A stretch of DNA of 64,000 bases from Deltaproteobacteria bacterium (GTDB lineage: Bacteria; Bdellovibrionota; FAC87; UBA2466), in NCBI GenBank assembly GCA_900299195.1, contig OMIX01000089.1, forward strand, positions 2,892 to 66,891, given 5' to 3'. How positions within the stretch are numbered: position 1 is the stretch's first letter; every line of letters starts with the position of its first letter. The translations under genes and the position numbers were made by a program. This document shows positions 3,004 through 39,144 of the stretch, in pieces. Under the pieces are notes generated by a model. That model did not search any database. It saw only the letters and a program-made list of their open reading frames with translations, and was not told the DNA's origin.

Positions 3004-3025
3004 TAGCTTATCCTTCTTTAAGGAA

Positions 3026-5256: not shown

Positions 5257-5258
5257 GG

Positions 5259-6811: not shown

Positions 6812-6922
6812 AACGCTATGCGTTACCCCGAAGATTCCCATCCATTCAACCGATTCCATCTTTCCAAGCTGAGAAAACCTCAGTAGAGTGCGCTCAAACC
6901 TTAACTTTTCGGAGGGCAACCC

Positions 6923-8244: not shown

Positions 8245-8251
8245 TCGTTCC

Positions 8252-10996: not shown

Positions 10997-11009
10997 TACA
11001 CTATTTTAG

Positions 11010-11246
11010 CTAGCAGATACGACGACAGCGGGTTCGGCATCGAACTCTAGCTACCGAGTAACATCGCACCCGTTTCACGCATCTAGAAACCGGCCGAACG
11101 CACCTTCGAGCACAAGGTCTAGCCCTAACAACGGGCGCACAGCCATGGCTTCCACATCTAGCTTCTGCCGGTGTAGGCGCTAATGTAGCTAAAGTTACTC
11201 CGACTAAAAACAACCCTTTAATCGTATTTTTACCAATACTTAACAC
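11010..11246 (-). CDS. secreted cysteine- and arginine-rich cationic peptide precursor (78 aa, GTG start)
   Basis: Signal peptide ending 'PAEA'; mature 49 aa with 10 Cys and about 14 Arg; strong SD 'AGAGGGG' 7 nt upstream of GTG; locally GC-rich. Confidence 0.45.
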   Translation of the reverse strand: MLSIGKNTIKGLFLVGVTLATLAPTPAEARCGSHGCAPVVRARPCARRCVRPVSRCVKRVRCYSVARVRCRTRCRRIC

Positions 11247-11519
11247 AGTTTTACCCCTCTATTAATTCCAACTCCTAGGTGAGAACTGATTGAAAGTTCT
11301 CACTAGGTTCCGTCTGGGCTAAGAGCAATGAATGTACCAAACTAAAAATAGGTTATCTTCGAAGGTTACAATTGTCCTATAGGTGGGCAAACGAAAACTT
11401 GTTAAACAATTTCATTAAAAGCGACAAAATTTGTTACTTTGTGGAACCCAATGGGACCGGACCGTAGCGTTCAGATTTGGATTACCTAGCTACTTCGAAA
11501 AGTGCTTTCCTTCCGCTGA

Positions 11520-13597: not shown

Positions 13598-13650
13598 GCA
13601 AACAATATATCGAACGGGGTCTTAACTGGAAAGTTAAGACCCCAAACTTT

Positions 13651-14988: not shown

Positions 14989-15087
14989 AGTGTCTCTGGG
15001 TTAGTGTAAAAGGCATATTATGCCACAGACTAAACCCAAAGAAAAAAACAATACTGAAAAGTTACCACCTTAATACGTTAAGCTCTT

Positions 15088-16038
15088 TTAAAAATCTTTG
15101 GATAACTCGAGGCTATGAGAAAAAGCGATGTCAGACCACTTGAAGATCTCTGGACGATTGGATCGATGAGTCAGAAAAAGCAAACCGGTTTTTTGGTTTG
15201 GATTTTCATGAAATAGGGCACAGATTTCTTTTCCCGTTTTATCTTTGATGATTTGAACATTTTCTGGCAATTGTCCGGTTTGGAAGTATTGATTCAAAAT
15301 TTGGTTTCTCTTTAAAGTGTAACCTTCAGGGGGATTCCATGCGCTTCCGATTAAACGAGTAAAAGCATCGACGGAATCGGGTCGATACTCTTCAGGTAAC
15401 TCTTTCCGAGCAAAGGAGTAAAGCGCTTGAATCTCCTCCATGATAGCTTTTGAGGCCTCAGTGGAAGGCTCCATCCCGATCGCTCTTTTGTAGAGCATCA
15501 CCACACCGAAATGCTGCTGACTATCCGTGACCATTCTGCGATATCCGCCAGCTTTTAGCATCTCGATCATTTGATTTTTTACATGGAGAAAAACTTCAAT
15601 TGGAAGTCCTTTTCTAAGTTGATCGGCATTCAATTTATTGGGGGCCTGGGGCGCTAAGGGGTTTTCTAAGACTAGTCCATCGACCGAAATAGATTCAGGT
15701 TTGGTTTCATCGGGAATTAAAGTAACGTGAACGTAAACTCGTCCCGCAACTTCCCCATTAATTCGTAATCGACCTGTGGGTAAATATTCCAGCCTCAGAG
15801 AAAAAGGGCCTTTCTTACTTTCCACTTCCTTCACGAACGCTTCTGGGAACAACTGAGCCGTCGAAAGTTTTAGATTTCTTTCCTTAAATTGCCAAGGTTC
15901 AAAAGCATTGGGCTTAGAATCAGAAGAGCTAAGCGCAACTTTAGAAAAAATATAGTCACAGTCAGCATAGGAAGGCTCTCCCCCCACCCATGCAATCCCT
16001 AAAAGAAAAATCAAATGGTAAAGCTTCGCCTTTTGCAC
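15088..16038 (-). CDS. hypothetical secreted protein (316 aa)
   Basis: Signal peptide; no recognisable motif. Confidence 0.45.
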   Translation of the reverse strand: MQKAKLYHLIFLLGIAWVGGEPSYADCDYIFSKVALSSSDSKPNAFEPWQFKERNLKLSTAQLFPEAFVKEVESKKGPFSLRLEYLPTGRLRINGEVAGRVYVHVTLIPDETKPESISVDGLVLENPLAPQAPNKLNADQLRKGLPIEVFLHVKNQMIEMLKAGGYRRMVTDSQQHFGVVMLYKRAIGMEPSTEASKAIMEEIQALYSFARKELPEEYRPDSVDAFTRLIGSAWNPPEGYTLKRNQILNQYFQTGQLPENVQIIKDKTGKEICALFHENPNQKTGLLFLTHRSNRPEIFKWSDIAFSHSLELSKDF

Positions 16039-16183
16039 CCGGACAACCCTTTCTAAAGCTCAGTAGCTTTAAGAAGTCTCGAGCGGAATGCAAAATTCGA
16101 TACCAAGTCACATAGGCACTTAAAGGTAAGGCAACCATGACTGTGGTTTCCACAGTCTGACAAAAAAGGTCAGCAGAAATAAA

Positions 16184-16804
16184 TCATTGGAAAGCTAAGG
16201 GCTCATAGTGGACTGATTTTTTAGGGAAAGGCCTATCTTTCAGTTTTTTAGCCGGAACCCCACCCCAAACCTCAAATGGACCCACATCTTTAGTCACTAC
16301 ACTCCCAGCAGCAATGACGGCACCAGACCCGATCGTTACGCCTGGCAAAATCACACAACGGGCACCAATCCAAACGTCAGAACCGATACTGACAGGGGCA
16401 GATGAAAAACCTTGCTGATACATGGGAATATCTGAGCGTTCAAAAGAATGGTTAGCCGTTGTGATATAGGAATAAGCTCCAATCATCACGAAATCACCCA
16501 TTGATAAAGAATCATAAACTCCTAAATGGGTATTTCTTCCGATAAAAAAATTCTTTCCTATCTTTAATTTCGGTTTTGCGTCAACTTCGGATGCAATCCA
16601 AATATTAACTTGTTTTTCAATTCTTCCTGGGCCTTCAATCGAAATATAAGGATAGGGAGATTTTTTGCCAATAAACTCTATGTCTCTCTCAGCGTTAATT
16701 TTAGCTAAGTCGAGTTGTTTGAACCAACGTTTGCGATCGTAATAATAGTTCCACTTGTGAAAACCAGCTCGTAATAGGTCTAAAGGATTAAAATAGGCTA
16801 ACAT
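16184..16804 (-). CDS. hexapeptide-repeat acyl/acetyltransferase (LbH family, maltose/galactoside O-acetyltransferase-like)
   Basis: Repeated [LIV]-G-x-x-x-x hexapeptides ('IGSDVWIGARCVILPGVTIGSGAVIAAGSVV'). Confidence 0.75.
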   Translation of the reverse strand: MLAYFNPLDLLRAGFHKWNYYYDRKRWFKQLDLAKINAERDIEFIGKKSPYPYISIEGPGRIEKQVNIWIASEVDAKPKLKIGKNFFIGRNTHLGVYDSLSMGDFVMIGAYSYITTANHSFERSDIPMYQQGFSSAPVSIGSDVWIGARCVILPGVTIGSGAVIAAGSVVTKDVGPFEVWGGVPAKKLKDRPFPKKSVHYEPLAFQ

Positions 16805-17039
16805 ATTTGATCAATTTTAAGTTTAGATCATAGTATCAGATGGAATCGGTATTTCCATAAAACTTCTAGAACTCGGAGAAAAAAGTGAGACGTGATGAAT
16901 AGAATCGGATTAGGCTTCGCAATGCGCCGTGCGCCCTGACTTGATATTTTTCTCAATCTAAGGGGTGTCATTTTTTTTGACAGTCAACTTTAACTTAGAC
17001 GGTCCCTAAACACGTTTTACAAATCACATATTTCTATGG

Positions 17040-17753
17040 GTGTATTCTAGGCTTAAAATCACTGGATTTTATTTTGCAGCTTCCTCTAAGTGGGGGGGCG
17101 CTGTATCTGTTCAGCGCGATTCAATCATGTATAGCCTTTCGATTCCGCTGCCATTCACACTGTTTTTTCTTTTTCAGTTTTTGTTCTATTCCAACACCCG
17201 TGGGAATGATCACGGTCCCGATTCGAAACAATCGAACCCATCTTTTAGTGCCAGCGATTTTGAATGTGTGAAATCTGAAAATGGATTTCGTCCCCGACAC
17301 AAAGAGATAAAAAAGCCCCTGGGTGCGGGAACTTTTAAAACTCTAGAAACCTGTAAACAAGCAATCAAGGTTTCAAAAAACGATATCGTTTGTGCGTCTA
17401 CCGGGCTCCCAGGAGGATTCAAACCTACTTTCAAAGCTGGGGTCACTCCATCCCGGCCAGATTGGGGATATGTCGGTGGTTCATCAATGACGCTTGAAGC
17501 CTGTCTTTTTGCCACAGAACAATCTCTGCCATCATCTATTTGTTTCTTTGGAGGAAAAGACGGCGTAACTGTCGGAGGTCCCGAAACCCCAGGTTGGTAT
17601 GCAACCCATCCCTCGGGCAATAAAAGCCGAAAAGGTGGCCCCTATGAATCTCTCCAAAAATGTGTCGAAGCGACTCATATAAAGTTCGAAGAGGACAAAA
17701 AACAGTTGAGGGGACTTTTTGAAAGTCTGCCCGATTCTGAAATCGCCCAATAG
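17040..17753 (+). CDS. hypothetical secreted Cys-containing protein (start possibly at internal Met, about 17127)
   Basis: Hydrophobic N-terminal segment; no motif; same strand as and just upstream of the diheme protein. Confidence 0.35.
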   Translation: MYSRLKITGFYFAASSKWGGAVSVQRDSIMYSLSIPLPFTLFFLFQFLFYSNTRGNDHGPDSKQSNPSFSASDFECVKSENGFRPRHKEIKKPLGAGTFKTLETCKQAIKVSKNDIVCASTGLPGGFKPTFKAGVTPSRPDWGYVGGSSMTLEACLFATEQSLPSSICFFGGKDGVTVGGPETPGWYATHPSGNKSRKGGPYESLQKCVEATHIKFEEDKKQLRGLFESLPDSEIAQ

Positions 17754-17777
17754 TTTTGCAAAAGGAGATTTACAGCT

Positions 17778-19562
17778 ATGAACTCAAAAACACCCTTTTT
17801 GGTCTTTTACATGGGATTAATGACTCTGGCCCCGACTGGAACTTTGATTGCAGACCGCAGCTCTTCTCGCTGGGATAGACTAGAAAAGCAACTTAAAGAA
17901 GATTCCCATGACCCTGATTTCCCACAAAGAGTCAAAGAGCTTTCAGACTTTCTTAAGAAAACCCAGCGCCCTTCCTCGAAACAAAAAAACTCAAAAGATG
18001 CCCAAGATTGCGATTGCGAGCCAGAGTCTCTAAAGTCTCCGTTTCACAACCCAAAAACAGCAGATTTGAAACCTCACAACTCTTTAATTACGAATGCCTG
18101 CTTCGATTGTCACTCTTCCCCCAACAGTGGTTTTAAGCTAACTCCATGGATTGATGATAAACAGGAATGGGAGCGAAGACTCAAATCTACGACTGCAGAG
18201 GAAAAACTTGAAGCGGAGAAATTATTAGGTCAGCTTTATCGAACTTTGGTTGATGGAAACAACATGCCTCCTGCTAGCGAATCCACCCTTCGACAACAAT
18301 TTAAAAAACATCCGAACCATGCAACTTTTGTTTCATTTATCAAAGAAAAATTTGAACAACTGCCGCAAAATGCAGTCAATACTCAAACAAGAAAAGCTGC
18401 TTCCAATCGGGTATCAGTCATGGAAGAAAAACTTGAAAACCACTACCGCAGTCTATTACCGAAAGTATCAAGTCAAACGCTGAACAACTTGTTTTCCGAC
18501 CCTAACCTTATTTTTATGGATGAAACTCACTTGGTGGCTGGTTATCAAGATCCAAGCCCCAAGGCAATGGGAGAAAGAACGACAACTTTAGGTTTTAAGG
18601 GTGCGGGTTTTGCCAAAGATGCACCCTATTTGGATAGCAAGGGACATTTAAAATTATGGACGACAGGGTTTGGAGTGGATCAAAGCCCCAACCTTAAACG
18701 GTTCCACTTTTTACAACTTCCCCAAAATGAAATGGGCGAACTTCAAAAGATCAAGGTCTCAAGCCGAAGATCAGCGTCTCCAGATGACGGTATTGTTTAC
18801 GATTGGAAATTTCCCTTGGGAACCGTTTCTGGAGAAGTGATCGCTAGTGTAGACTCTGAAGGCAAAGAGCATGTTCTGGAAGTTAGATTACGAACGAAAG
18901 ATAATTCAGAAGGCCCCTGGGGTGCAGATATTTTCAGACCTTATCCCACCAAAACTATTTTAATGGATGAACTCCTGAAAATCTCTCAAAGCAATAGTCC
19001 GCTTGCATCCGAAGCGGACAGGGTGATGAAAGAGCTTAAACTTCCAGGAAGATTAACGCCACAAAGCTCCGGAATGCACGGCTACCAGAGAGGCGAACTC
19101 AATTCCGATGGTGGCACAGAAGTCTTGCCTGAAATGTCTGAAGCCTTAACAAAAAGATTACTTCAAGTCCCCTTTCAATCCTCACTCGGATCTGAATGGG
19201 ACAGAAATGAAAAAGTTAAAGCCTTTGGGGCAACTTCCGACCAACCTTTTAGTATCGTGCCTCAAAATAACACTGAGGGAAGTGTGCAAGTGGGGCGTGA
19301 AAGTTGCGGACGCTGTCATAAAAACAGTAACACACCCATCAGAGATTTTTTCAATCCCAACCACCCCAAATATTACTCTTCAATTGTGGCTTATGGAAAT
19401 ACCCCAGGCAGCGATCAGCAATTACGTTTCCACCCGTTTGACCAGGAATTGTTTAAATGGTTTGGAAATGACACCTACGAAAAAAAAATCGGAAAAGCGG
19501 ATAACCGAGAGTTTAATCCAGCACTCAAACCTATTTTGGAAATACTTCCGTCCAAAAAATAG
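17778..19562 (+). CDS. secreted protein with two c-type heme-binding motifs (putative diheme cytochrome/peroxidase-like)
   Basis: Signal peptide; two CxxCH motifs ('CFDCH' and 'CGRCH') about 400 residues apart. Confidence 0.5.
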   Translation: MNSKTPFLVFYMGLMTLAPTGTLIADRSSSRWDRLEKQLKEDSHDPDFPQRVKELSDFLKKTQRPSSKQKNSKDAQDCDCEPESLKSPFHNPKTADLKPHNSLITNACFDCHSSPNSGFKLTPWIDDKQEWERRLKSTTAEEKLEAEKLLGQLYRTLVDGNNMPPASESTLRQQFKKHPNHATFVSFIKEKFEQLPQNAVNTQTRKAASNRVSVMEEKLENHYRSLLPKVSSQTLNNLFSDPNLIFMDETHLVAGYQDPSPKAMGERTTTLGFKGAGFAKDAPYLDSKGHLKLWTTGFGVDQSPNLKRFHFLQLPQNEMGELQKIKVSSRRSASPDDGIVYDWKFPLGTVSGEVIASVDSEGKEHVLEVRLRTKDNSEGPWGADIFRPYPTKTILMDELLKISQSNSPLASEADRVMKELKLPGRLTPQSSGMHGYQRGELNSDGGTEVLPEMSEALTKRLLQVPFQSSLGSEWDRNEKVKAFGATSDQPFSIVPQNNTEGSVQVGRESCGRCHKNSNTPIRDFFNPNHPKYYSSIVAYGNTPGSDQQLRFHPFDQELFKWFGNDTYEKKIGKADNREFNPALKPILEILPSKK

Positions 19563-19600
19563 CTCAGTGTTTTTTGAGTTCTTTTTTTTAACTCAGGCTT

Positions 19601-20941
19601 TTAAAGTTCTGTAGCTTTTTCAAGCCGTTGAATCCGTTTCAAGAATGCCCCAGCTTGAAAGCGTAGCTTAGGAATCCAATAATAGGGTTTAAATTCTAAA
19701 AATCGTCTCTGATAGATCGATAGATATCTTTGTACTTGTTCTTGCGAATAAGCCAGTCCATTATCGGCATATTTACCCACATAAATCGAAAAGTCAGAAT
19801 TGAGATCTTGAGTCGTCCACTTCCCATTCAGAGTAACTTTCATAAAATTGCCAATTAATAAATCCTCAAAAATTCCAAGCTGAATCGAAAGCATGAGCGA
19901 ATTTCTTGGAACTTCAAAAGTGATTCCTCTTTGAAATTGTCTAGTTTTCCAAGTCACACGATTATCTACACCGCCAACCCGCACATTGATAAAATCTAAA
20001 TAGTTTCCAAGATGTTCAATCCGCTTAAAATACTTTTCGATCTGTTCAAAATCACCCTTGTGAAGGGGCTCATCCCAATCATCCCCAAATTCTTTACAAT
20101 TTCTAATTTTTATCGGCATAGATTCGGGACGAATTTCAATCCAGCTTTCACTATTAAAATCATACCGAATAAACGCCGGTAAAATCTGACTTATTTCTGA
20201 CTGATACCCTTCGTATAGGTCCTGCATCCTCCTGGAGTAATCATTGGCCCAAGCACTATCATTTCTTTGGAACGCATGGAAGGAACTACTAGGAACAAAA
20301 TACCGGGCTCCAAATCGCTCTGCCTTTTTTGCATTTTCGATACCCGCGGGCGGCCGATTCAAATACTCCTTTGGGACAATGAATTGTCCGTTCTCATCAT
20401 AGTAATTAAGCATATCGGCGATACCTAGCGATGAGATCGAGAAAAGAAATGAATTTTGATATTTTTTGCCTAAATTTTTGATGTAATGGTTTCTGCCAAA
20501 ATCAACAGCATCATTGCAGTTAATTAACAAATTATTTTTTACTTCAATAAGTAAAATCGAGTCCTGATACTGGTCTGACCAACATAAAACTCTGACATTC
20601 TCCGAAAGGGAATACCACTTTCTATCTTTGAGAACTGTAACATCATATCCTTCTGCTCTTAGACCAGAAGCAATGCGCCCTCCCACATGGTCTGCTAACA
20701 ATATCTTTCTGTCCTTGAATTTAGGAAGTGAGTCTGGGTTTAAGTGGTCTGGATGCCCATGCGAAAACCAAACATATTTTGCATTTAGGATCGATTCCAT
20801 CTGAACTTGGGGAATTTGGTAGTTACAAATCCAGCTACCAAAATAAGCGTCTGGAGTGATCCAAGGATCGGTCACTAAGATCGGGGCTTCATCGTGAACA
20901 ATGATGGTTGCATTACCAATCGTTTCAAATCCCAGCTTCAT
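19601..20941 (-). CDS. MBL-fold metallo-hydrolase
   Basis: 'HGHPDH' (HxHxDH) motif near N-terminus; 446 aa. Confidence 0.7.
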   Translation of the reverse strand: MKLGFETIGNATIIVHDEAPILVTDPWITPDAYFGSWICNYQIPQVQMESILNAKYVWFSHGHPDHLNPDSLPKFKDRKILLADHVGGRIASGLRAEGYDVTVLKDRKWYSLSENVRVLCWSDQYQDSILLIEVKNNLLINCNDAVDFGRNHYIKNLGKKYQNSFLFSISSLGIADMLNYYDENGQFIVPKEYLNRPPAGIENAKKAERFGARYFVPSSSFHAFQRNDSAWANDYSRRMQDLYEGYQSEISQILPAFIRYDFNSESWIEIRPESMPIKIRNCKEFGDDWDEPLHKGDFEQIEKYFKRIEHLGNYLDFINVRVGGVDNRVTWKTRQFQRGITFEVPRNSLMLSIQLGIFEDLLIGNFMKVTLNGKWTTQDLNSDFSIYVGKYADNGLAYSQEQVQRYLSIYQRRFLEFKPYYWIPKLRFQAGAFLKRIQRLEKATEL

Positions 20942-21013
20942 GAAGCCCCCTCAGAAAGTGAACATGAAACTCTATTATATTAGCTACGTTAGGGGCTCTC
21001 AAGTAGCCATTTC

Positions 21014-22471
21014 TTAAAGGTTCAAATCCTCAACGCGGGACGAGAGACTGCGAAGAAAATCTTCTAACGCAGCTATTTCATGTTCACTCAAATTCAATGG
21101 CTTTAGCGTTTCCTCTCTAAAACCTACTCCAGAATGAGTCTCCATTTTGTTGTAGTGCTCCAGGACTTCCCTTAAAGTCTTCAATCTACCATCTCTCATG
21201 TATGGAGCAGTCTCTGCTACATTTCTTAGAGTCGGGGTTTTGAACGAACCAATCGCCTCTGGAGTTTCACTGTCCAAGAAATTGAGATCCCGACAGCTTT
21301 CGCTTTTTTGTCTTGAAGAATCTTTCAAAAATATTCCTTGGCAATTAAATCGGTCTTTTTTGACGGTCAACACACCTAAACTTCTCCCTAAATCAAACGG
21401 AGCCTGGCTTTGCGGAAGTCCAATATTGTGAAATTGATTGTCTTTAAAGTAGGGACCACTGTGACAAACATGGCAGGCCCCTTTTCCTAAAAAGATTTGA
21501 AACCCTAGAAACTCAGAGAAATTGAATTTCTCACTAAAATGAACTCTGGGGTCCGGATTTGAACTCTGCATCCACCTGCGGATAAATTGATCGAAAGCAG
21601 AATCTCTGGCAACAATGCCCTTTTCAAAGGCTTCAAAAGCCAGTCCAACGTTTGAGAAAACCCTATCTAACTCAAATCTTTGTTCACGATTCATTCTCCA
21701 GTAGTTAACTGATAATACATCTCCTTTTTGTGGAGATTGATTTCTTAATTTCTGGCGGAACTGTCGGATTTGCTGGGGTGAAAGTGTCAATTCATTCGAG
21801 CCGATTTCAGAGAGCAACTTTGGATTATCTGCTGAAACCATCGTATTTCTCACTACCCCATCAGAAAATTGAGGGCGTTCCCGCAAGGGACGCGCTTTAA
21901 AAGGGAGTGCCTTTTCCAATATTTTTGGAAAGGGGCCAAAAAGATTTTCGTAATCACTACGGGAGTTGTTTAAAATCCAGAAAGCTAATTCGGAACGAGT
22001 CAACCCCTGTTCACCCTCATCCTCAATGGGATTCAACGATTGTGCCGCCAACGAATCGGTGCGACCATCCCAGTAAAACCAAAAACTTGAAAAACTATTG
22101 ATGATAGTTGGGGTATTACGATCTCGTTGAGTTAAACCCTGTGCAGTAGTTTTACCATCCGTAAAGGATAGTTCTGGTTTATGACATGTCGCGCACGAAA
22201 TTTTCCCATTCTTGGATAAGCCAGTCTCGAAAAATAATTTTCTACCCCAATGAGCTAGTTCCCGATCTCTAGGGGTCAACTCGGGATCTTGGAAAACAAA
22301 AAACTGAGCCAACTTCCTAAGTTCGTTATCTGCCAATGGCTTGTTACCCATGGCGTCCCTTAACAATCTAGCCTGCTCTTTGGGAATCATGATGTACCGC
22401 CTGATGCCCACCATCCCAAGGACAATCAAAATCCATAAAAATAAAGTCAGCGAAAGTTTTTTAGAAATCAT
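21014..22471 (-). CDS. diheme cytochrome c peroxidase (CCP/MauG family)
   Basis: Signal anchor; two CxxCH motifs ('CATCH', 'CHVCH'); length and spacing typical of bacterial CCP. Confidence 0.85.
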   Translation of the reverse strand: MISKKLSLTLFLWILIVLGMVGIRRYIMIPKEQARLLRDAMGNKPLADNELRKLAQFFVFQDPELTPRDRELAHWGRKLFFETGLSKNGKISCATCHKPELSFTDGKTTAQGLTQRDRNTPTIINSFSSFWFYWDGRTDSLAAQSLNPIEDEGEQGLTRSELAFWILNNSRSDYENLFGPFPKILEKALPFKARPLRERPQFSDGVVRNTMVSADNPKLLSEIGSNELTLSPQQIRQFRQKLRNQSPQKGDVLSVNYWRMNREQRFELDRVFSNVGLAFEAFEKGIVARDSAFDQFIRRWMQSSNPDPRVHFSEKFNFSEFLGFQIFLGKGACHVCHSGPYFKDNQFHNIGLPQSQAPFDLGRSLGVLTVKKDRFNCQGIFLKDSSRQKSESCRDLNFLDSETPEAIGSFKTPTLRNVAETAPYMRDGRLKTLREVLEHYNKMETHSGVGFREETLKPLNLSEHEIAALEDFLRSLSSRVEDLNL

Positions 22472-22887
22472 TTGTTATCAATGTTTAAAGGAGTTTCAAT
22501 TCGAGTGGTCCCTGTTTTATCCTTAATCAAAAACTGCAGTAACCAATTTCCCGGCATGTGAAACCTGACACCCTCCACCCGATACTCCAGCCTCGAAATT
22601 TTAATCACTTTGGCCTTAGTTACCATTCCATGGTTATGCTGGGGCATTCTGGCATCAAAGGTAAAATCGAGCACCTCCCCCGCCTGTTTCTCAATAGGAA
22701 GCAATGAAACTATCCATGTCGTATGCCGATTTAATTGAAATAGTTCAGCACCTTTTTCAGCTGCCTTGATAGATATTTGAAAGTTGGGAGTCCTCCATTC
22801 ATAAGCCAACCCCAGAGACGAAAAAAAACCAAAACTCATTATCCAAAGGCAACTGTAGCGGAAACAATTCAAAGATTTTTTCATCAT
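22468..22887 (-). CDS. small periplasmic His/Met-rich protein, putative metal-binding partner of the peroxidase
   Basis: Signal peptide; 'MPQHNHGM' and 'FHMPGNW' motifs; stop overlaps the CCP start (ATGA coupling). Confidence 0.5.
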   Translation of the reverse strand: MMKKSLNCFRYSCLWIMSFGFFSSLGLAYEWRTPNFQISIKAAEKGAELFQLNRHTTWIVSLLPIEKQAGEVLDFTFDARMPQHNHGMVTKAKVIKISRLEYRVEGVRFHMPGNWLLQFLIKDKTGTTRIETPLNIDNK

Positions 22888-22919
22888 AGTAATGATAATA
22901 TATCAGTCAGGATCTTAAG

Positions 22920-23978
22920 ATGACAATTCTACAAAAGAACAATTACCTGATTCGGTTTATTTGTTTTATATTCACATCGCTCTTTGCCTCATCAGCCCTT
23001 TCCAGTGATGGGCCTCAAAATAGTGGCCGTCTTCAATTGAAGGCCTCTCAGAACCACCAAGTCGAAGCTATCCTCCAAGTAGATCGGAAAGCGCTTCAAG
23101 AACTTTTTTCAACAGCTAATACAGAAAAAGCGGCTGAGTTTCTGAATTTCTTTTGGGTCAGTTCGCAAGAAGCTATCTGTCCAATGGCCTCCCCGTCTTC
23201 GTTGGCTAATGAAAATACTATCTCAACTACATTTATTCTGAATTGTCCTAAAGCTCCAGAACAACTTAAAATTCAACTCACCCAACTTGAATCACTGCCT
23301 AAGGGGTTCTCCCTAGGAGTAAGAACAAACTTTGAGCATTTTGTTTTGGATATTGATAATACCCAAAAAGAAACTTTTTTAAGTCCTTTTCAAATATTTT
23401 TTCGATCAGGTCTTTCGATATTTAGCTTTTTGGGAGCCCATTCCCAAGGATCACCGTTGGCTCTCTCACAACTTGGACGCCCGTTTCCGCTCTATTTTGG
23501 TGGGCTCAGTATTTTACCAGTGGGAATTTGGTGGCTTTTATTAGTGGCCGCGATTGGTGTATCAAATTTGAAATTTAAGCAAAAAGTATTAGCGGTAGGA
23601 ATGGCTATTTTTTTCTCGGGTTGGGTAGCTTACTTCATTTTGTTTTCTCAAATGTCACTCAGACTTCTTTCTGTTAACCAAATTAGTTTTAGTTACTTGG
23701 CCTGCATTTCCTATCTCACCTTTTTGAGTTTTCGAACCCCAACTGAGCAACAAAAGAAGGGGTGCCTGTTTTTGTTGATCGTACTTTCAATTTTTAGTGG
23801 ATTTGAATTTAGCCTGATGTTGAGATGGCTTGAAGGAAACCGGACAGTTCCTCTGGGAATTTGCATCTCGAGTTTTTTTGCTGGGCTCACACTCAACACC
23901 GCTATTCTCATGACTGCTTTTCTTATTTTAGGGTTTAGTCTTTATTCAGCGATAGCCTTGGCTTTTAAACTCATGTGA
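22920..23978 (+). CDS. hypothetical polytopic membrane protein with N-terminal periplasmic domain
   Basis: Signal peptide followed by a soluble domain of about 150 aa and at least 6 predicted TM helices. Confidence 0.45.
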   Translation: MTILQKNNYLIRFICFIFTSLFASSALSSDGPQNSGRLQLKASQNHQVEAILQVDRKALQELFSTANTEKAAEFLNFFWVSSQEAICPMASPSSLANENTISTTFILNCPKAPEQLKIQLTQLESLPKGFSLGVRTNFEHFVLDIDNTQKETFLSPFQIFFRSGLSIFSFLGAHSQGSPLALSQLGRPFPLYFGGLSILPVGIWWLLLVAAIGVSNLKFKQKVLAVGMAIFFSGWVAYFILFSQMSLRLLSVNQISFSYLACISYLTFLSFRTPTEQQKKGCLFLLIVLSIFSGFEFSLMLRWLEGNRTVPLGICISSFFAGLTLNTAILMTAFLILGFSLYSAIALAFKLM

Positions 23979-24057
23979 GCTCAGCCACTGTTTCTTTCTT
24001 TCGACCAGTAATAGGGATTAATACTTGGTTACTTTTGGTTTCAAAATAAAGAAAGTA

Positions 24058-25665
24058 TCAGGGGGTAGTGCTGCTCTTCTTAAAAATTAAGGAACGACTG
24101 CTGTTGTTTTTTATAAAATGATTCCCCTCAAAAGGTAATAAAGGTGATAATAAATTGAACGGACTAAGTCTTAACTCAATGGAATTGGCGGTCTCTCTGT
24201 TGCCAACGAGATAACGGTCTTTTTGATCTAAAAATAGAGCAATTCTTCCCGTATAAAAATCATAACTACCGCCTCGAAAGTCTTTGGCTGGCCAAAAGGA
24301 TTCGGTATGAATCATTCGTCCCACAAAATTCAATGGAGAAAATGGATTTTCCAAGTTGGAAGGTATTTTCTCAGCTGCGACTCCCACGTTAATTAACAAA
24401 TTATCAAAAGTATATGTACCGGAGAGAGACCCCACTGTAATTTTGTCGGTTGGAAGTTGAGGAAGTTTTGATTTCTGAAAGTAAAAAGTTCCCACCCTCC
24501 CAAAAAGTAGTGAATACCAAACCCCCTCGATAAAATCCTCATTAGCATTCGTAATTTCTAAGACCGCATCCATCTCGTTCACTTCAGTTAATGTGGGTTT
24601 GGCTAAGACAAAATGATTTGAATCTTCGGATAAAAAAACGGGGTCGTAGCGGTAAGTGAGAGCTTCTTGAGATTTAAAATCTCCAAAATAAAGTCTAAAC
24701 AAAGTTGAAAGCCCTATGGGTCCACCTTCGGTTTTTGGAGGCACTATAAAAAAATCTAAGTCAGCTGCTTGATACTCATTAAGCAACTCGTGATGAACAT
24801 ACCCTATGTAAGCGCCCTCCAACTTTCGAGGCTCGATAGTTCTTCTTTGGGAATGCTGGGGAAATTCAGAAGCGGTTGCGAAAAGTTGGGTATGAACCGA
24901 TGCATCCTCACTGGAAGTTTTTTTGTACTGACACGAACCACAGGTCATCCCAGATTCATTAATCAGACAATGCTGATTTTCATACCTACCAAAGAGATCT
25001 AGATTTTGGGTGTAGAAATTATAGGCTCCTGAGAAAAACAAGTTACGAACACAGTAATTGGTTTCCGTACATTGATTTGGGTTTTCAACTCCTATCTCGC
25101 CCACAATTTCATAGTCTGAAAAGGGATGGCCCGTTTTAGTCGTTTCTTGAATACTTCGATAAGTATAGAGCTGAAGCTTTTCTTTTTTGCCTGAGCAAAC
25201 TCCTTCATATTCTCCCCAAAGGGCATCTATCAGGGGATATTTCAGAGCCACTTTTCCATCTTTTCTTAAAATAAGTTCAGGGTGATCCGTAGTGAAGCTC
25301 GTTCGCAAAGTTCCTTTGAGCTCTTCTTCAGAAAACTTAGGAAAGGAAACACTAACCTCTTGATTGATTTGGTCAAAGACTAGCCAATCTCCATGAAGAT
25401 GAGCTGTATCAAAGTGAAAAGAAACATACTCCCGGCTTTTTAAATCACCAAAATAGAACTTGAGAAGCCCTAACCAACTGGAAGGCACTTCAGATTGCGG
25501 ATTAGCTACCAAATCCAAAGTGACATATTGGTCCCTCTGAATCGAATGATGACGAAGGACTCCAGTATATCGAAGTGAAGGAAGAGACGCTCCGGGAGAG
25601 GCAATAGTGAGCAACAATCCTAAAATAAATGATAGTTTGAATTGTTTTTGGAACGTCATTCTCAA
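24058..25665 (-). CDS. hypothetical secreted protein with internally duplicated domain (535 aa)
   Basis: Signal peptide; two homologous halves ('LLKFYFGDLKSREYVSFHFD' / 'LFRLYFGDFKSQEALTYRYD'). Confidence 0.5.
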   Translation of the reverse strand: MRMTFQKQFKLSFILGLLLTIASPGASLPSLRYTGVLRHHSIQRDQYVTLDLVANPQSEVPSSWLGLLKFYFGDLKSREYVSFHFDTAHLHGDWLVFDQINQEVSVSFPKFSEEELKGTLRTSFTTDHPELILRKDGKVALKYPLIDALWGEYEGVCSGKKEKLQLYTYRSIQETTKTGHPFSDYEIVGEIGVENPNQCTETNYCVRNLFFSGAYNFYTQNLDLFGRYENQHCLINESGMTCGSCQYKKTSSEDASVHTQLFATASEFPQHSQRRTIEPRKLEGAYIGYVHHELLNEYQAADLDFFIVPPKTEGGPIGLSTLFRLYFGDFKSQEALTYRYDPVFLSEDSNHFVLAKPTLTEVNEMDAVLEITNANEDFIEGVWYSLLFGRVGTFYFQKSKLPQLPTDKITVGSLSGTYTFDNLLINVGVAAEKIPSNLENPFSPLNFVGRMIHTESFWPAKDFRGGSYDFYTGRIALFLDQKDRYLVGNRETANSIELRLSPFNLLSPLLPFEGNHFIKNNSSRSLIFKKSSTTP

Positions 25666-25748
25666 GCTCCCAAAGGTCTCGGACAGAGTTCTAAAACATT
25701 TTGGGATTTAGATTCAACTTTAAAAAACTGAATAACAAGTTCTTAAAG

Positions 25749-26123
25749 CTAATGTGAGTTAGCTGCGCCTACACACTTGAGATCGGCTAATTCTCTAGGT
25801 CCTGCAAAAGTGGTTTCAGATAATTTTCCGTTCATATCCACTCCTGGAAGCTCCAGCTTAATCGTTGCAAAAAATCCTGCATCAGCCACACGTTGAGCTG
25901 TTCGACAATTTAAGAAGGCTTTTAACGTGTGGTCGGAGGGTTTGGGATATACAACGTTACATTTCATGTTTCCAAACTCGATATCCTCACCATTCACAGT
26001 AAGTTTAGCAGTTTGATGATTAGAGCTAACCTTGAGGTTCCATTTTCCACCACTGCAAAAAATAGGGGCTCCGAAAGAAAATTGAGATACGACCATGAAT
26101 CCCATTAACAAGTAAGTTTTCAT
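25749..26123 (-). CDS. small secreted Cys-containing protein (124 aa)
   Basis: Signal peptide, 6 Cys, no motif. Confidence 0.4.
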   Translation of the reverse strand: MKTYLLMGFMVVSQFSFGAPIFCSGGKWNLKVSSNHQTAKLTVNGEDIEFGNMKCNVVYPKPSDHTLKAFLNCRTAQRVADAGFFATIKLELPGVDMNGKLSETTFAGPRELADLKCVGAANSH

Positions 26124-26400
26124 AAGTACTCCTTAAAAAAGTTACCCCTTTCTAACAGAAAATAACACATTGCGCAACCTGCGCTTTAAGGAATGCTGAC
26201 CTTCCCCCTTAATTAGTGTCAGTTTATGGCTTTAATTACAGCTTACAAGAGCACCACGGCTACTCTTCAACCTTGGTACTGTGAAGGAAATTTTTTGAGA
26301 GCCTCAGCGTAGGCAGGAGTAAGTCGTAAAAAATAATGTCCATTAATATTTTGCACTTCGCCCTACTCCAATGCTCAACATGACAAATTGTTTTTTGTAA

Positions 26401-27645
26401 TCAGTGCTGCGCTGAATGTTCTGTAGCGAGTCTAGCAAAAGATTTCAAACAACGTCGGCTGCCCAAATTAAAGACAAGACTTTCATCCCGAGTTGGCTCC
26501 CCACTGACAAATTCATTAAGATTCTCTTTGTCGAGTAAGCCGGTATTTTGATAAGCCTTGCCGAAGGTCTCGGGAAATGCTTTAGCCACGGCATGAACTC
26601 GTTTGACGGGATCTACTTTAAAAGCACTTTCTAAAAACCGTTCCTTTTCCTTATCCAACTCCGTAGTTGGCGGAAGGAGCTCCCTGAGTTTGGAATTGAC
26701 GAAAGATTCGAAGTCGGTTGCTGCCCGCTTGTTCGAAAGTAATAGCCGAGTGCCCCTTGAGAATAAATCATTAGAATCGACTGAAGAGTTTTTAAATTGA
26801 ATCTGGAAATACATTAACAATAGCGGTTTTCTAAAAAGTTCATGACTGATGGATTGCGCCTGTGAAAACAAATCCTCTGAAGGAACATTTGAGAGCCTTT
26901 GTTGGTAATGTAAACGCTCCGGTGCTGCATAGGACGGAGTAAACATGATGACCTTGGATGTTCCAGTCTCAGAGACACTATCAAGATCCCCAAGCCTTGC
27001 TTGGGCACCCATTATGTTATTACTTTTTAAAAGAAAGTAATTGGAAGGCTTAATGTCTCCATGAACAAGATTATTTGAGTGAAGCGCAAGAAGAGCCCCT
27101 TGACCAGCAAGAAATAAAAGATCAGAACGAATAATTCTTTGGTCTTCAGATAGCCTTTCTGGTTTTTTTGTCTCAAAGGTTCCTTTGGCAAGTGTGGAAC
27201 GGACGACGAATTCAGAACCTTCATATGCGTGCTGCTTCAACCACACTTCTTGAGTGGGTTCATAATTCAGAAAGAAACTCGGATTTGAATCCATTAACTT
27301 GCGATGTTGCGGGCTTCCGTAAAACTGTAAGCTATCTTTACCAGACAGTATTAAGTTGTTCTTTTGATCGCGTATCGGCCTGGCGAATTTCATCGCTTGG
27401 ATCTGTTTGGATCGAGCGCATCCCGAAAGGCACTCCACCTGGTAAACCTCGCCGGAACTACCCTTTCCTAGTATCTTAATAATTTTATACTCGCGATTAT
27501 CTTTATCCACCCAAACTTCCCCGGGTTGGACGGCGTGAATAGTTTTGTAGCACCCAACGAGAAAAAAGAATGTTAAAATAATCCCGAAGCCGAACTCTCG
27601 ACCTTTTTCTAGCGACCGTGCAGTCTTGTGGAGCTCAGGGCGCAT
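26401..27645 (-). CDS. Hanks-type Ser/Thr protein kinase with N-terminal signal anchor
   Basis: Gly-rich loop 'GKGSSGEV', 'AMK' lysine, catalytic loop 'HGDIKPSNY', 'DLD' in place of DFG, 'APE' motif; hydrophobic N-terminal segment after a basic stretch. Confidence 0.7.
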   Translation of the reverse strand: MRPELHKTARSLEKGREFGFGIILTFFFLVGCYKTIHAVQPGEVWVDKDNREYKIIKILGKGSSGEVYQVECLSGCARSKQIQAMKFARPIRDQKNNLILSGKDSLQFYGSPQHRKLMDSNPSFFLNYEPTQEVWLKQHAYEGSEFVVRSTLAKGTFETKKPERLSEDQRIIRSDLLFLAGQGALLALHSNNLVHGDIKPSNYFLLKSNNIMGAQARLGDLDSVSETGTSKVIMFTPSYAAPERLHYQQRLSNVPSEDLFSQAQSISHELFRKPLLLMYFQIQFKNSSVDSNDLFSRGTRLLLSNKRAATDFESFVNSKLRELLPPTTELDKEKERFLESAFKVDPVKRVHAVAKAFPETFGKAYQNTGLLDKENLNEFVSGEPTRDESLVFNLGSRRCLKSFARLATEHSAQH

Positions 27646-28411
27646 AATATCCCAGTACGGCTCTTGTCATATCAAAGTCACGTTCATTTTCGATAAATAA
27701 TATTTTGCGATATTCCGTAGCATCCTCAATCATATTATTCATGGGATCTGCGATAAGATTGCTTTTTGGAAGATAAACAAAGACATGGGAAAATGTTGGT
27801 TCGTTTTTTTCTTCTCGAGCATCTGCAACTCTTAGCTCTGCTTCGATCCCAAGTTGTTTAAGAATTTTATATAAAATGGTGGCCTTGTGGCGGCAAACTC
27901 CTCTATCTTTGACACGGGAATCAAGAAAACTCGAGGCAAAACGAACTGTGTTGGGATGGAGAACCAAAGTAGACCACACGATTTGACCACCTTTTCCATC
28001 ATCACTGGGATCTCCTCCGTAGAGTTTGCTAATAAACATCTTCAATATTTGTTTTAGGTTTTGACCTGAATACTTCAGTAACTCTCTTTCTTCCGCTGTT
28101 AAGTGAGAAACAATATTGTCCCAATCAAAGTAAATACCAAACCCGATGTGAGGTGCCTGACGAGTAAACGACTGGATTTGGTGTATCAAAATGGGAATAG
28201 CTCCAACAGCGGTTAAAGTACCGCCTAATCCGACAATTCTTGTTAAAGTTTGCCGACAGGAGTAGCGAGTAGCAGTTGACTGGATCGAATCCGAAAGGAA
28301 TACAGTTCTCTCGCCTTTTATTTTTTCGATATCTGAAATTTCCAAGCCTAGGGCGCCGATATTTGTTAGACAGATACAAATAAATACGATACTTCCACGG
28401 TATCTCAGCAT
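27635..28411 (-). CDS. transglutaminase-like (TGL) cysteine protease superfamily protein, exported
   Basis: Cys-His-Asp core 'GVCRHKA ... SHVFVYL ... LIADP' with canonical spacing; N-terminal signal sequence; 3' end overlaps the kinase start by 11 nt. Confidence 0.55.
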   Translation of the reverse strand: MLRYRGSIVFICICLTNIGALGLEISDIEKIKGERTVFLSDSIQSTATRYSCRQTLTRIVGLGGTLTAVGAIPILIHQIQSFTRQAPHIGFGIYFDWDNIVSHLTAEERELLKYSGQNLKQILKMFISKLYGGDPSDDGKGGQIVWSTLVLHPNTVRFASSFLDSRVKDRGVCRHKATILYKILKQLGIEAELRVADAREEKNEPTFSHVFVYLPKSNLIADPMNNMIEDATEYRKILFIENERDFDMTRAVLGYYAP

Positions 28412-28556
28412 ACCAAAGCCTTTCTTTGCCCCATTTCTTCTTGGTTAATGCAAATGGGATTCCATGAAAGAGAGATTAAAAAAGCTTTTTTTTCATAGTT
28501 TGAGTTGATCGGGGATAAGACAGAGATTTTTACCAAAGCATTAAAATCGAAAGAGT

Positions 28557-29303
28557 TTACTTTGATGGGACAGATCCGCTTTGTTGGATTGGAATAAGAT
28601 AGACATGGGTATAACCTAGTTCTTGAAGTTGCTTTTTAAACGAGCGGGAAGTTTCTGAGTCGCGAATAAGAATAATTTTATCCCGGTGGGTAATCATTCC
28701 ATGGGTAGCAGTACTGATAGCTTTTTTTAATTGGGTTCGACTCCAATTTTCACTCTTTGCCTTTTCTATCATTTCGCTATGGATCGATTGGGCTCGTTTA
28801 AAATCGGGAGGATTTGATACTTCAATTTCGATCGATTCTTTTAGGGTGATTAAGCTTGGAATTTCTTGGGAAATAGGAAATCCGCTCGCCTTCGAAATAG
28901 GGATGAGATGATTGTTGAGTACGTCCGAACGATCCAGAAGAACTAAGGGGCTAGGGGGGTTCTTAAAAAAGAACATGACATCTAAATCGCTTTTTTGTTC
29001 GGGAGAGTATCCGTAACTGAAATGGGTTCTGCTTCCAAAAAGCACCATCGCCTCAACATCACTAAAGTCTGGGTTGTTTTTGAAGATATCTATGAGCTCA
29101 TTGAGTTGGTTTTGGCTCATACCCATCGGGGTGGGAATGCCCTGATATCGCTTGGCTTCGAAGTTAAGAAGCTCACGGCAGTTAGTTTTGGGAATGGCAA
29201 GAGAGTAATGGCACACAAGCCCAAATGTCATAATAATAGACAGAGCTATATGTTTTTTTACAGTATTCATCGTTTTCTGACTCAATTCCAAATGCCAAAA
29301 CAT
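28557..29303 (-). CDS. Pol-beta-fold nucleotidyltransferase with Sec signal peptide (start probably at 29270, 'MNTVKKH')
   Basis: 'LFGSRTHF...SDLDVMFF' (G-S-x14-D-x-D) minimal nucleotidyltransferase signature; n-h-c signal peptide 'MNTVKKHIALSIIMTFGLVCHYSLA'. Confidence 0.5.
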   Translation of the reverse strand: MFWHLELSQKTMNTVKKHIALSIIMTFGLVCHYSLAIPKTNCRELLNFEAKRYQGIPTPMGMSQNQLNELIDIFKNNPDFSDVEAMVLFGSRTHFSYGYSPEQKSDLDVMFFFKNPPSPLVLLDRSDVLNNHLIPISKASGFPISQEIPSLITLKESIEIEVSNPPDFKRAQSIHSEMIEKAKSENWSRTQLKKAISTATHGMITHRDKIILIRDSETSRSFKKQLQELGYTHVYLIPIQQSGSVPSK

Positions 29304-29362
29304 TTAGGCTGCAATAGAAAGGCCGATTTTTGAGGAAAGGATGTCTCCGGAATGTACCCGGA

Positions 29363-29439
29363 TGGTGGGCGCCACAGGACTCGAACCTGTGACCTCTGCC
29401 GTGTGAAGGCAGCGCTCTAACCAGCTGAGCTAGGCGCCC
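29363..29439 (-). tRNA. tRNA-Val (anticodon CAC) with encoded CCA
   Basis: Reverse complement GGGCGCCTAGCTCAGCTGGTTAGAGCGCTGCCTTCACACGGCAGAGGTCACAGGTTCGAGTCCTGTGGCGCCCACCA folds as a cloverleaf; anticodon loop TTCACAC. Confidence 0.85.
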
Positions 29440-29471: not shown

Positions 29472-29557
29472 TGGTGCGACGGGGGGGACTTGAACCCCCA
29501 CGCCTTTCAGCACATGCACCTCAAACATGCGTGTCTGCCATTCCACCACCGTCGCAC
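29472..29557 (-). tRNA. tRNA-Leu (anticodon GAG), long variable arm, encoded CCA
   Basis: Reverse complement GTGCGACGG...GTCGCACCA; anticodon stem CATGT/GCATG with loop TTGAGGT; type II variable arm; GTTCAAGTC T-loop. Confidence 0.8.
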
Positions 29558-37701: not shown

Positions 37702-39144
37702 TTACTGTTTTGGAGTTTCAAGTTGATATAAAGACTCATCTTCAGAAAACGCAGGAGCCTTAGGCTCAGAGGCTCCTCCCTCTTTTGAAGAAGGCTCAGT
37801 AGAATTCATTTGATTGCTGTCGGATTCAGGCAATTGTTTTTTAACAGGTTCAGATATTTCAGATTCTTTTGGAATCTCAGTATGGGGATCTGATGGAGTT
37901 AATTCTAAAGAAGAATCAATTTTGGGATCGATAGGCGCCTTGGGCACCAATTTAATCTCAACCTCAGGGCTTCCCCCTTCAATCTTTTTCCCTTTGATTT
38001 TAGATTTGAAAGAGCCATTAGGAGCTCCTAACCCCAGAGCCAAAGTTAAAGCATATCTTCGACTGGGTAAACGACCCGGCCCACTTGACAACTCTTCTTG
38101 ATAAGTCGCGAAATCTAATTTGGCATAGGTCAGGTTAACACCTAATCCCACTGAAACATAACCTTGATGAATACCCGTTCTTACAGTCAACGCTCCTACG
38201 GGAACCTCAATCCCAAGATTTAGATGCTTTAAAATTTTTCCAGACCGAGCCCCCAAATGTGGATCGCTCTCTCCACCTAATTGAAACTCGGCAAGATCAG
38301 CCATCACATGATAGTGATCTACTAAATCACCTCCAGAGAAAACAGAATGCCAACCAATTGAAAAAGTACGGGTAAGACCAGGAGGTTGACCGGTGCTTTT
38401 GCTTCCCATAGAAAATGAGCTTGCAAGCAAATTACTCACTACAAATGAAATTCGATTAGCTTGTCCAAAGTCTAAATAGGGAATGTCGTACATGACTCCT
38501 AAATCAAAATCGATCCCAAATCCAGTTCCGCCAAGATCTTTGGGATTCAAATTCACTTTGTCGCCTTGAACCAAATCAGCCAAAGTTAAATTGACTCTGC
38601 CTCCGCTGCGAAGAATCCCTTTTGCCGTTAATCCGATGTGGGTATATTCATTACCCACGGTTCTTCCATAGCTAACCAGCAGTCCGGAATCGATAATTCC
38701 AGTGAAATCGACACTCGAATCGAGTTCTTTCCCAGAGAGCAAATAATCGGCTTTAACATCTCCTAGCAAAACTCCCACAGCTAAATGCTTCATTAAGAAA
38801 TAAGGTAGAACAGAGCCCCCTAAGTAAAGAGGATCTCCTTGATATTGAGCTAAAGCATCAATCGAATCGGCTAAGGATTTTGAAGACAGAGTCTTTTTAG
38901 TTTCAAAGGCAGCAAAAGTACGATTACCGACTTGACTACCGAAATTCACCATCGATTGTGTTTTACCTTGATAAAGGCTAACGCCGGCGGGATTGTAGAA
39001 CAGTGCGTACTCATCATCCGACCGCCCGTAGAACGCCCCCCCCATTCCCAAGGCGCGAATGCTTCGACTGATACCGTAGAACTCTCTCATCGCGAATGTT
39101 GGGACTACAAAAGATAGACATATGAGAAGGGTCAGTCTTTTCAT
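37702..39144 (-). CDS. FadL/OmpP1/TodX-family outer-membrane transport protein with long disordered C-terminal tail (paralog of 13651..14988)
   Basis: 'RSIRALGMGGAFYGRSDDEYALFYNPAG' hatch motif; about 100-aa Pro/Glu/Ser/Lys-rich C-terminus. Confidence 0.55.
   Translation of the reverse strand: MKRLTLLICLSFVVPTFAMREFYGISRSIRALGMGGAFYGRSDDEYALFYNPAGVSLYQGKTQSMVNFGSQVGNRTFAAFETKKTLSSKSLADSIDALAQYQGDPLYLGGSVLPYFLMKHLAVGVLLGDVKADYLLSGKELDSSVDFTGIIDSGLLVSYGRTVGNEYTHIGLTAKGILRSGGRVNLTLADLVQGDKVNLNPKDLGGTGFGIDFDLGVMYDIPYLDFGQANRISFVVSNLLASSFSMGSKSTGQPPGLTRTFSIGWHSVFSGGDLVDHYHVMADLAEFQLGGESDPHLGARSGKILKHLNLGIEVPVGALTVRTGIHQGYVSVGLGVNLTYAKLDFATYQEELSSGPGRLPSRRYALTLALGLGAPNGSFKSKIKGKKIEGGSPEVEIKLVPKAPIDPKIDSSLELTPSDPHTEIPKESEISEPVKKQLPESDSNQMNSTEPSSKEGGASEPKAPAFSEDESLYQLETPKQ

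Follow-up and report, generated by a model that had tools for sequence, protein, structure and literature searches.

A Sec-leader-bearing, MNT-like nucleotidyltransferase encoded next to tRNA-Val represents a rare family of candidate exported effectors

A gene located next to tRNA-Val in a 64,000-nucleotide stretch of bacterial DNA (hereafter the window) encodes a nucleotidyltransferase (NTase) whose Pol-beta-superfamily, MNT-like fold is well supported and whose N-terminus carries a predicted Sec signal peptide. This protein belongs to a family that is so far rare and previously undescribed, in which the export signal appears, from the sequences, to be conserved as a property of the whole family. 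The known roles of minimal (MNT-type) NTases are those of cytoplasmic antitoxins or of resistance enzymes; MntA transfers a nucleotide monophosphate (NMP) to HepT, and the ANT enzymes transfer it to antibiotics. We give about even credence to the proposal that the window NTase is an exported effector that transfers nucleotidyl groups. The gene, its leader and the neighbouring tRNAs are located as follows.

28557..29303, (-) strand: gene for the predicted exported MNT-like NTase, a complete ORF of 248 aa with an ATG start
29196..29303, (-) strand: predicted Sec signal peptide, aa 1-36, from the translation, with predicted cleavage after SLA36
29178..29180, (-) strand: Cys42, the sole Cys of the mature NTase, a few residues past the predicted cleavage site (column counts)
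29363..29439, (-) strand: tRNA-Val(cac), by ARAGORN and Rfam
29472..29555, (-) strand: tRNA-Leu(gag), by ARAGORN and Rfam, downstream of secG in the gap-pgk-tpiA-secG operon

The first-pass annotation had described the NTase gene as adjacent to tRNA-Val and as the first gene after the tRNA pair, and the ARAGORN and Rfam predictions bear this out, with 59 bp between the tRNA-Val 3' end and the NTase ATG. A scan for promoters and terminators around the gene gave no signal over the shuffled expectation. The translated N-terminus reads MFWHLELSQKT-MNTVKKH-IALSIIMTFGLV-CHYSLA/IPKTNC, the slash marking the predicted cleavage site. By inspection, the signal peptide proposed ahead of the NTase domain is recognizable as an n-h-c leader of the Sec/SPase I type: its n-region is positively charged, its h-region spans 12 residues, and positions -3 and -1 are occupied by Ser and Ala. 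All leader calls in this study are heuristics applied to sequence only; a stricter signal-peptide heuristic flagged 31 of the 58 ORFs of the window and, being too permissive, is not used as a statistic. A translation start downstream of the hydrophobic segment had been named as an observation that would speak against this assignment. The alternative in-frame ATG, M12 at 29270, keeps the leader intact, and the first Met past the leader is M60, which lies within a conserved motif. Cys42 is located before this Met and its column is Cys in 47 of the 49 occupied rows of the family alignment, so that the start cannot be placed downstream of the hydrophobic segment. A disulfide-linked dimer formed through Cys42 is a reasonable guess.

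A model of the NTase protein (pLDDT 92), together with the translation and the family alignment, delimited four elements in the mature region.

28854..29129, (-) strand: NTase core, aa 59-150, with helix 64-76, strand 83-89, the GS loop, strand 107-113, helix 119-140 and the short strand GFPISQEIP
28977..29039, (-) strand: catalytic signature F89-G-S-R-T-H-F-x-Y-G-Y-x-P-x3-S-D106-L-D108-V, from the translation (letters FGSRTHFSYGYSPEQKSDLDV)
28707..28844, (-) strand: three-helix insertion, aa 154-199, from the model secondary structure and column counts
28590..28694, (-) strand: C-terminal strand-helix-strand, aa 204-238, from the translation, with model strands 210-214 and 234-237

In the model, the leader (1-36) is followed by a helix at 42-52 that precedes the core, and a helix at 219-228 lies between the two C-terminal strands. 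This C-terminal element, whose family consensus is KEAxxxxR...L...GYxN, probably completes the NTase sheet. The three-helix insertion includes the conserved K193 (K in 41 and R in 14 of the 62 sequences).

The GS...DLD signature on which the NTase assignment was originally based is thus present, and it is near-invariant in the 62-sequence alignment. However, the bare regular expression hG[GS]x9-14[DE]h[DE]h also matches one other of the 58 ORFs of the window, and the motif alone is therefore weak evidence for the assignment. Three motifs define the Pol-beta-like NTase superfamily (Kuchta et al., PMC2794190). In the window NTase, hG[GS], where the second core helix begins, corresponds to F89-G90-S91, and [DE]h[DE]h in the second core strand corresponds to D106-L-D108-V on model strand 107-113. 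Candidates for the third carboxylate (h[DE]h on the adjacent third strand) are E147, in GFPISQEIP, and D208, just before strand 210-214; across the family, D or E occurs at 145-148, on the predicted third strand, in 33 of 62 sequences and at 208 in 42 of 62, neither being invariant. With a third carboxylate that varies in this way, nucleotide binding without transfer is conceivable for some members or for the family as a whole.

Profile and fold searches led to the same superfamily. The Pfam Polbeta profile (PF18765) matched the window NTase with 20.5 bits and E=5.4e-4, below its gathering threshold of 26.9 bits and over profile positions 1-44 of 93 only; it matched 24 of the 62 family members at E<0.01, the best at 4.3e-7. 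A profile search of the PDB retrieved the NTase-domain protein 9xbd_E (E=0.04), aligned over the GS...DSDxD region, and a direct PDB sequence search with the single window NTase returned only noise. Foldseek matches of the model were weak (E about 0.01) and fell in the same families, the MNT antitoxins and the ANT resistance enzymes. A match to a housekeeping cytoplasmic NTase had been named as an observation that would speak against export; no such profile matched.

Relatives were sought in several searches. A word-indexed homologue search returned three relatives, 97%, 63% and 33% identical to the window NTase, and its repetition with a 62-sequence profile returned only four, because the word index limits the search. 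When 1.84 billion cluster representatives were searched exhaustively with an HMM of the aligned relatives from the word-indexed search, 69 proteins were detected at E<=1e-3, including 43 at E<=1e-10. Family members are mostly 200-275 aa long and match across the entire mature region. One HMM match, a vWA-repeat protein (P0061), looks spurious. Among 185,579 GTDB species representatives, a motif pattern scan matched three genomes, labelled Deltaproteobacteria, Bdellovibrionaceae and Oligoflexales. A scan of genome contigs with an earlier motif pattern gave no matches, and a motif scan of metagenome and viral contigs revealed no relatives; one family alignment was too diverse to yield a search pattern. 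A fold search of BFVD with the NTase model gave nothing significant. The members known so far come from metagenome-assembled genomes (MAGs) with the labels Bdellovibrionaceae, Oligoflexales and 'Deltaproteobacteria'. This small family is uncharacterised and has no name in Pfam.

The family alignment contains 62 sequences with a mean column identity of 16%. Despite this divergence, the catalytic signature is nearly invariant, as the conserved columns indicate (window numbering).

C42: 47/49 occupied
P59: 58/62
G61: 59/62
G90: 61/62
S91: 61/62
R92: 62/62
H94: 50/62
G98: 59/62
P101: 55/62
S105: 61/62
D106: 61/62
L107: 58/62
D108: 60/62
K/R193: 55/62
L226: 60/62
G230: 44/62
Y/F231: 60/62
N233: 49/62

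Between the NTase gene and its counterpart in the 97%-identical strain (locus L002) there are 12 synonymous and 8 non-synonymous differences (dN/dS 0.17). The NTase is a real gene under purifying selection.

A strongly hydrophobic segment lies N-terminal to the domain in at least 50 of the 62 family members. Most of the leaderless members begin at or near the conserved PxG or GSR motif and therefore look truncated. It is the presence of the leader that is conserved family-wide, its sequence being unconserved. Many of these leaders are textbook signal peptides, for example MKALFYVLIFIFATSASSIA, MRFLVVALSVLLLSSGHAS and MNNFLYFIVLLLTSQSAVA, the first two being short and canonical with AxA-type sites. 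In the 33%-identical homologue (locus L001), a canonical leader, MFNKSKIKMALLVFLVLFIYDGLAAQA, is restored when translation begins at an in-frame ATG that precedes the called start by 24 nt. Actual export of the NTase and cleavage of its leader would be the expected consequence. One member, P0035 (2071 aa), carries a signal peptide of its own and has the NTase domain at its extreme C-terminus (1883-2070); its N-terminal region contains no recognisable toxin-delivery module, and its contig stops 243 bp after the gene.

The window Pgk groups with those of uncultured MAGs that carry the labels Deltaproteobacteria, Bdellovibrionales and Bdellovibrionota. In relatives whose Pgk is 81-87% identical, the gap-pgk-tpiA-secG genes and the tRNAs are syntenic with the window up to the tRNA-Val 3' end; blastn synteny with L012, L014 and L015 stops at window positions 29359-29362, which correspond to this end. 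Beyond tRNA-Val, these relatives carry a tyrosine integrase followed by cargo that differs in each genome. L015 has an intact integrase (356 aa), and its element of about 8 kb is bordered on the far side by a 49-bp stretch that repeats the tRNA-Val 3' end; elsewhere the integrase is reduced to remnants. Backbone synteny returns at the aldo-keto reductase gene (window 11520-12356). Within the window itself, we found no second copy of the tRNA-Val 3' end (att-like repeat) and no remaining integrase. The tRNA-Val 3' end is thus an integration hot spot in the relatives. Since synteny ends exactly at this point, with integrases and varied cargo beyond it, the NTase gene sits in a strain-variable island, and its adjacency to the tRNA reflects the hot spot and not a functional link.

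Other family members have different surroundings. In L002, homology with the window begins about 30 bp upstream of the NTase ATG, preceded by an HTH gene and no tRNA. In L001, which is syntenic with window 2761-13603, the 33%-identical homologue has the aldo-keto reductase gene on one side and the acetyl-CoA hydrolase gene on the other, and the flanking proteins are 63-88% identical to those of the window. Either an inversion of window 12357-29332 together with rapid divergence, or paralogy, would account for this arrangement. Members at L007, L008, L009 and L010 have unrelated neighbours. The first-pass annotation also viewed the NTase gene as leading a run of genes for exported proteins at 24058..29303, which contains the following neighbours.

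26217..28538, (-) strand: strain-variable insert with the TGL-like and kinase genes (blastn of L002 against the window, junction sequences)
27635-28411, (-) strand: TGL-like gene (Pfam Transglut_core, E=0.12)
26401-27645, (-) strand: Ser/Thr kinase gene (Pfam Pkinase, E=4e-13)
25749-26123, (-) strand: gene for a small exported Cys protein, located right after the NTase gene in L002
24058-25665, (-) strand: gene for a 535-aa exported protein, within the genes directly after the NTase gene in L002

These genes are indeed present in the window, but they do not form a fixed unit: the 2.3-kb segment with the TGL-like and kinase genes is missing from L002, which has about 29 bp in its place. The idea of the five-gene run as a conserved unit had to be abandoned, as none of the six other contexts (L001, L002, L007, L008, L009 and L010) contains a conserved neighbour or a HEPN partner, and no homologues of the TGL, kinase, small-Cys or 535-aa proteins were found near other family members. 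The NTase gene stands alone. With regard to the neighbours themselves, the TGL protein has two hydrophobic segments, and its catalytic domain may therefore be cytoplasmic. In the Ser/Thr kinase, a lipobox (LVGC) precedes the kinase domain, which is complete, and the protein is predicted to be a second, extracytoplasmic ATP-using enzyme of the island. The kinase fits the same export logic as the NTase, yet is dispensable in L002.

Several known identities were examined for the window protein and rejected. As an MntA antitoxin, it reached only 15.5 bits (E=0.012) with NCBIfam NF047752, against an equivalog cutoff of 60; no HEPN (HepT) gene is adjacent, the neighbours in the window being tRNA-Val and the TGL-like gene; and a leaderless cytoplasmic protein of about 100-140 aa would be expected, whereas the window protein has 248 aa and a leader. 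No housekeeping NTase profile matched. PADLOC returned no defence-system match for the NTase, and assignments to CBASS/CD-NTases or defence MNTs were set aside. A phage origin was likewise discarded, with no relatives in viral contigs and no significant match in the BFVD fold search.

For the mode of action, we infer a catalytic activity, a nucleotide donor, a target and a site of action as follows. Sec would export the NTase, and the signal peptide (aa 1-36) would be cleaved. Once folded, the exported enzyme would bind NTP-Mg2+ through the GS loop, R92, S105 and D106/D108, and would move a nucleotide monophosphate onto a hydroxyl of a protein or small-molecule target. It would act where NTPs exist, i.e. 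in or on a prey or competitor cell, or on leaked contents. No NTP pool or other nucleotide donor is known in the periplasm of the producer, and an effector working elsewhere therefore seems the most plausible arrangement. Export via Sec in an unfolded state would spare the producer, and an immunity or HEPN partner may be missing because export itself would protect the cell.

An alternative, which we regard as unlikely, is that the NTase serves the producer itself as a housekeeping enzyme of the periplasm or envelope, where it would modify an envelope component or scavenge and process extracellular nucleotides. A Sec signal alone delivers a protein only to the periplasm, homologues are found among ordinary metabolic genes in several genomes and there is no immunity gene, all of which such a role would accommodate. 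However, a housekeeping enzyme would hardly be so rare and patchy (3 of 185,579 GTDB species representatives, 69 clusters) or be located in variable regions. The homologue of L001 is only 33% identical although the flanking genes are at 63-88%, one member is the C-terminal domain of the giant secreted protein P0035 and, as noted above, no periplasmic nucleotide donor pool is known.

Sec signals are typical of periplasmic immunity proteins. On this basis, and given that the third carboxylate is not invariant, the family could also consist of non-catalytic NTase-fold proteins, either exported nucleotide-binding receptors or immunity/binding proteins, like MafI2, which shares the fold. We judge this improbable: 60-62 of the 62 sequences retain G90, S91, R92, S105, D106 and D108, as is typical for an active site; no toxin gene is conserved next to the family; and a position as C-terminal module of a 2071-aa secreted protein suits a toxin or an effector, not an immunity protein. 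Finally, it is very improbable that the protein is a cytoplasmic MNT antitoxin or antibiotic NTase whose hydrophobic N-terminus either is an artefact of annotation or, left uncleaved, anchors it in the membrane with the domain on the cytoplasmic side. Although its closest folds are the MNT antitoxins and ANT resistance enzymes and the charge balance flanking the hydrophobic segment of the window protein is roughly even, it lacks a HEPN partner, its MntA score is 15.5 bits against a cutoff of 60, many family leaders (MKALFYVLIFIFATSASSIA, MRFLVVALSVLLLSSGHAS) are too short for membrane anchors and the conserved region begins before any alternative start that lies past the leader. Thus, active-site conservation and family-wide leaders disfavour both the non-catalytic and the mis-called cytoplasmic readings.

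Returning to the exported nucleotidylyl-transferring effector, a family-wide export signal on an MNT fold points to nucleotidylylation outside the producer cytoplasm and suggests an effector acting on other cells. A more far-reaching proposal, for which we claim less than an even chance and which is put forward tentatively, is that the window NTase is the founding member of a family of Sec-exported nucleotidyl-transferring effectors in Bdellovibrionota-like bacteria, which would AMPylate or nucleotidylylate a target of the prey or competitor with its own NTPs, the lipoprotein kinase being a second ATP-dependent exported effector. If true, this would add a new class of secreted enzyme to the arsenal of Bdellovibrionota-like bacteria, and a new class of biochemical weapon for predatory bacteria. 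It would also provide a compact (about 210 aa) AMPylase scaffold and a worked example of tRNA-linked variable islands gathering exported ATP-using enzymes. The definition of a small, unnamed NTase family in itself helps annotation.

Among known systems, the MNT/MntA proteins of HEPN-MNT (type VII) toxin-antitoxin systems, including HI0073 (PDB 8xeh_E, 1no5, 5yep and 6m6v), have in common with the window NTase the GS...DxD motif with an Arg after GS. By analogy with the AMPylation of HepT by MntA, the reaction is probably the transfer of an NMP to a hydroxyl. In contrast to MNT/MntA, the window NTase has a signal peptide and no HEPN partner, its mature form is about 212 aa long instead of about 100-140 aa, and a spacer of 14 residues with a conserved THFxYGYxP separates GS from DxD. 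Relative to the MNT-type minimal NTases of about 100 residues, it adds the three-helix insertion and the conserved N-terminal Cys. The antibiotic NTases LinB, ANT(4'), ANT(3'')(9)/AadA and AAD(9) are cytoplasmic, unlike the leader-bearing window NTase, with which only their N-terminal ~100 residues align. They carry their helical domain at the C-terminus, the window NTase having its helices inserted before the last strands, and according to Pfam the window NTase is not a member of these families at the sequence level.

Secreted members of the superfamily do exist: the AMPylase domain of Legionella DrrA/SidM (PDB 3nku) is an NTase-superfamily effector. RelA/SpoT-like toxin domains of polymorphic toxin systems are likewise secreted NTase-superfamily toxins (PMC3482391). 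Both belong to other branches of the superfamily (RSH and GlnE-like) and rely on T4SS, T6SS, T7SS or polymorphic-toxin delivery, usually together with immunity proteins, whereas the window NTase has a plain Sec signal and a stand-alone gene with no immunity partner. With respect to the C-terminal domains of polymorphic toxins and effectors, P0035 alone carries the NTase domain at the C-terminus of a large secreted protein. In the literature searched, no minimal NTase is described as exported, periplasmic or secreted, and the secreted NTases that are described come from other branches. The window NTase and the proteins grouped with it therefore constitute a distinct and rare MNT-like family, set apart by a Sec leader, a signature of its own, the inserted helices and the conserved Cys near the N-terminus.

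The 3' end of the tRNA-Val gene is an integration hot spot in the lineage of the window. Synteny with four contigs of related organisms (L012, L013, L014 and L015) stops at this point, which the contig comparison places as follows:

window 29359-29363: end of synteny with the four contigs
L012, L013, L014 and L015, ~12560-12890: the same end point in the relatives

Past tRNA-Val, these contigs carry a tyrosine integrase, intact in L015 and reduced to remnants in L012, L013 and L014, and cargo that differs from contig to contig. In L015, 49 bp of the tRNA 3' end are repeated at 20785-20833 and close an element of ~8 kb. The backbone of the relatives picks up again with the gene for the aldo-keto reductase (window 11520-12356), and window 12357-29362 is therefore a variable region of ~17 kb.

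A further relative (contig L001) has the order aldo-keto reductase (-), nucleotidyltransferase (NTase) homologue (+) and acetyl-CoA hydrolase (+) at 7111-9943. In the window, by comparison, the reductase and hydrolase genes adjoin in the same orientation (11520-13597) and the NTase gene (28557-29303) lies 15 kb off. As judged from gene order, the arrangement is consistent with an inversion of window 12357-29332. Between L001 and the window, the NTase proteins are 33% identical and the flanking proteins 63-88%.

The genes and segments discussed below are:

window 13651-14988 (-): exported protein 1, mature N-terminus KEFYSLSRSPRSMGMGGAF, weak DUF5723 match
window 24058-25665 (-): exported protein of 535 aa, counterpart at 3470-5070 of L002, a contig of a 97%-identical strain
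window 26217-28538: 2.3-kb segment with the transglutaminase-like (TGL) and kinase genes
window 26401-27645 (-): Ser/Thr kinase of 414 aa (Pfam Pkinase, E=4e-13)
window 27635-28411 (-): TGL-like protein (Pfam Transglut_core, weak, E=0.12)
window 37702-39144 (-): exported protein 2, mature N-terminus REFYGISRSIRALGMGGAF

The mature N-termini of exported proteins 1 and 2 are alike, and the two proteins are probably paralogues. The TGL-like and kinase genes overlap by 11 nt. In L002, the whole segment that holds them is swapped for ~29 bp (2883-2913), and no repeats were seen to flank the segment. The 535-aa protein is split in L002 into two called ORFs (130 and 416 aa), suggesting that in that strain the gene is frameshifted or a pseudogene, or that its assembly is wrong there.

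Further members of the NTase family are:

L006 56-6271: P0035, 2071 aa, on a high-GC metagenome contig
ENA contig of 1514 bp: P0201, a near-identical copy of the NTase
L009 5231-5739 and 9998-10723: secG-tRNA-Leu(gag) and a family member ~4.3 kb downstream, in an Oligoflexales MAG

P0035 has its own signal peptide and a long Pro/Ala/Arg-rich region in which no domains can be recognised; its last ~190 residues are the family domain. P0201 departs from the NTase after residue ~231 (ELGY) and continues with 69 unrelated residues ending in GQHDDLLMSLAMAKIGRAHV; this could reflect an insertion into the NTase gene of another strain or a chimeric assembly. L009 and the window share the secG-tRNA-Leu(gag) landmark, with an NTase protein identity of only 25%, and the proximity in L009 could be either coincidental or a remnant of synteny.

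The TGL-like protein, which the first-pass annotation had considered exported, shows a C...H...D pattern. Because it contains two hydrophobic segments (~aa 8-23 and ~aa 60-79), its catalytic domain may instead face the cytoplasm. The 414-aa protein contains a complete kinase domain (motifs GKGSSGEV, HGDIKPSN, DLD and APE). Since a hydrophobic N-terminal segment with a lipobox (FLVGC) at its end precedes this domain, the protein is predicted to be an extracytoplasmic lipoprotein kinase. Such kinases are unusual among bacteria. The protein matches the Legionella effector kinase LegK1 weakly, over its full length (NCBIfam, E=0.006).
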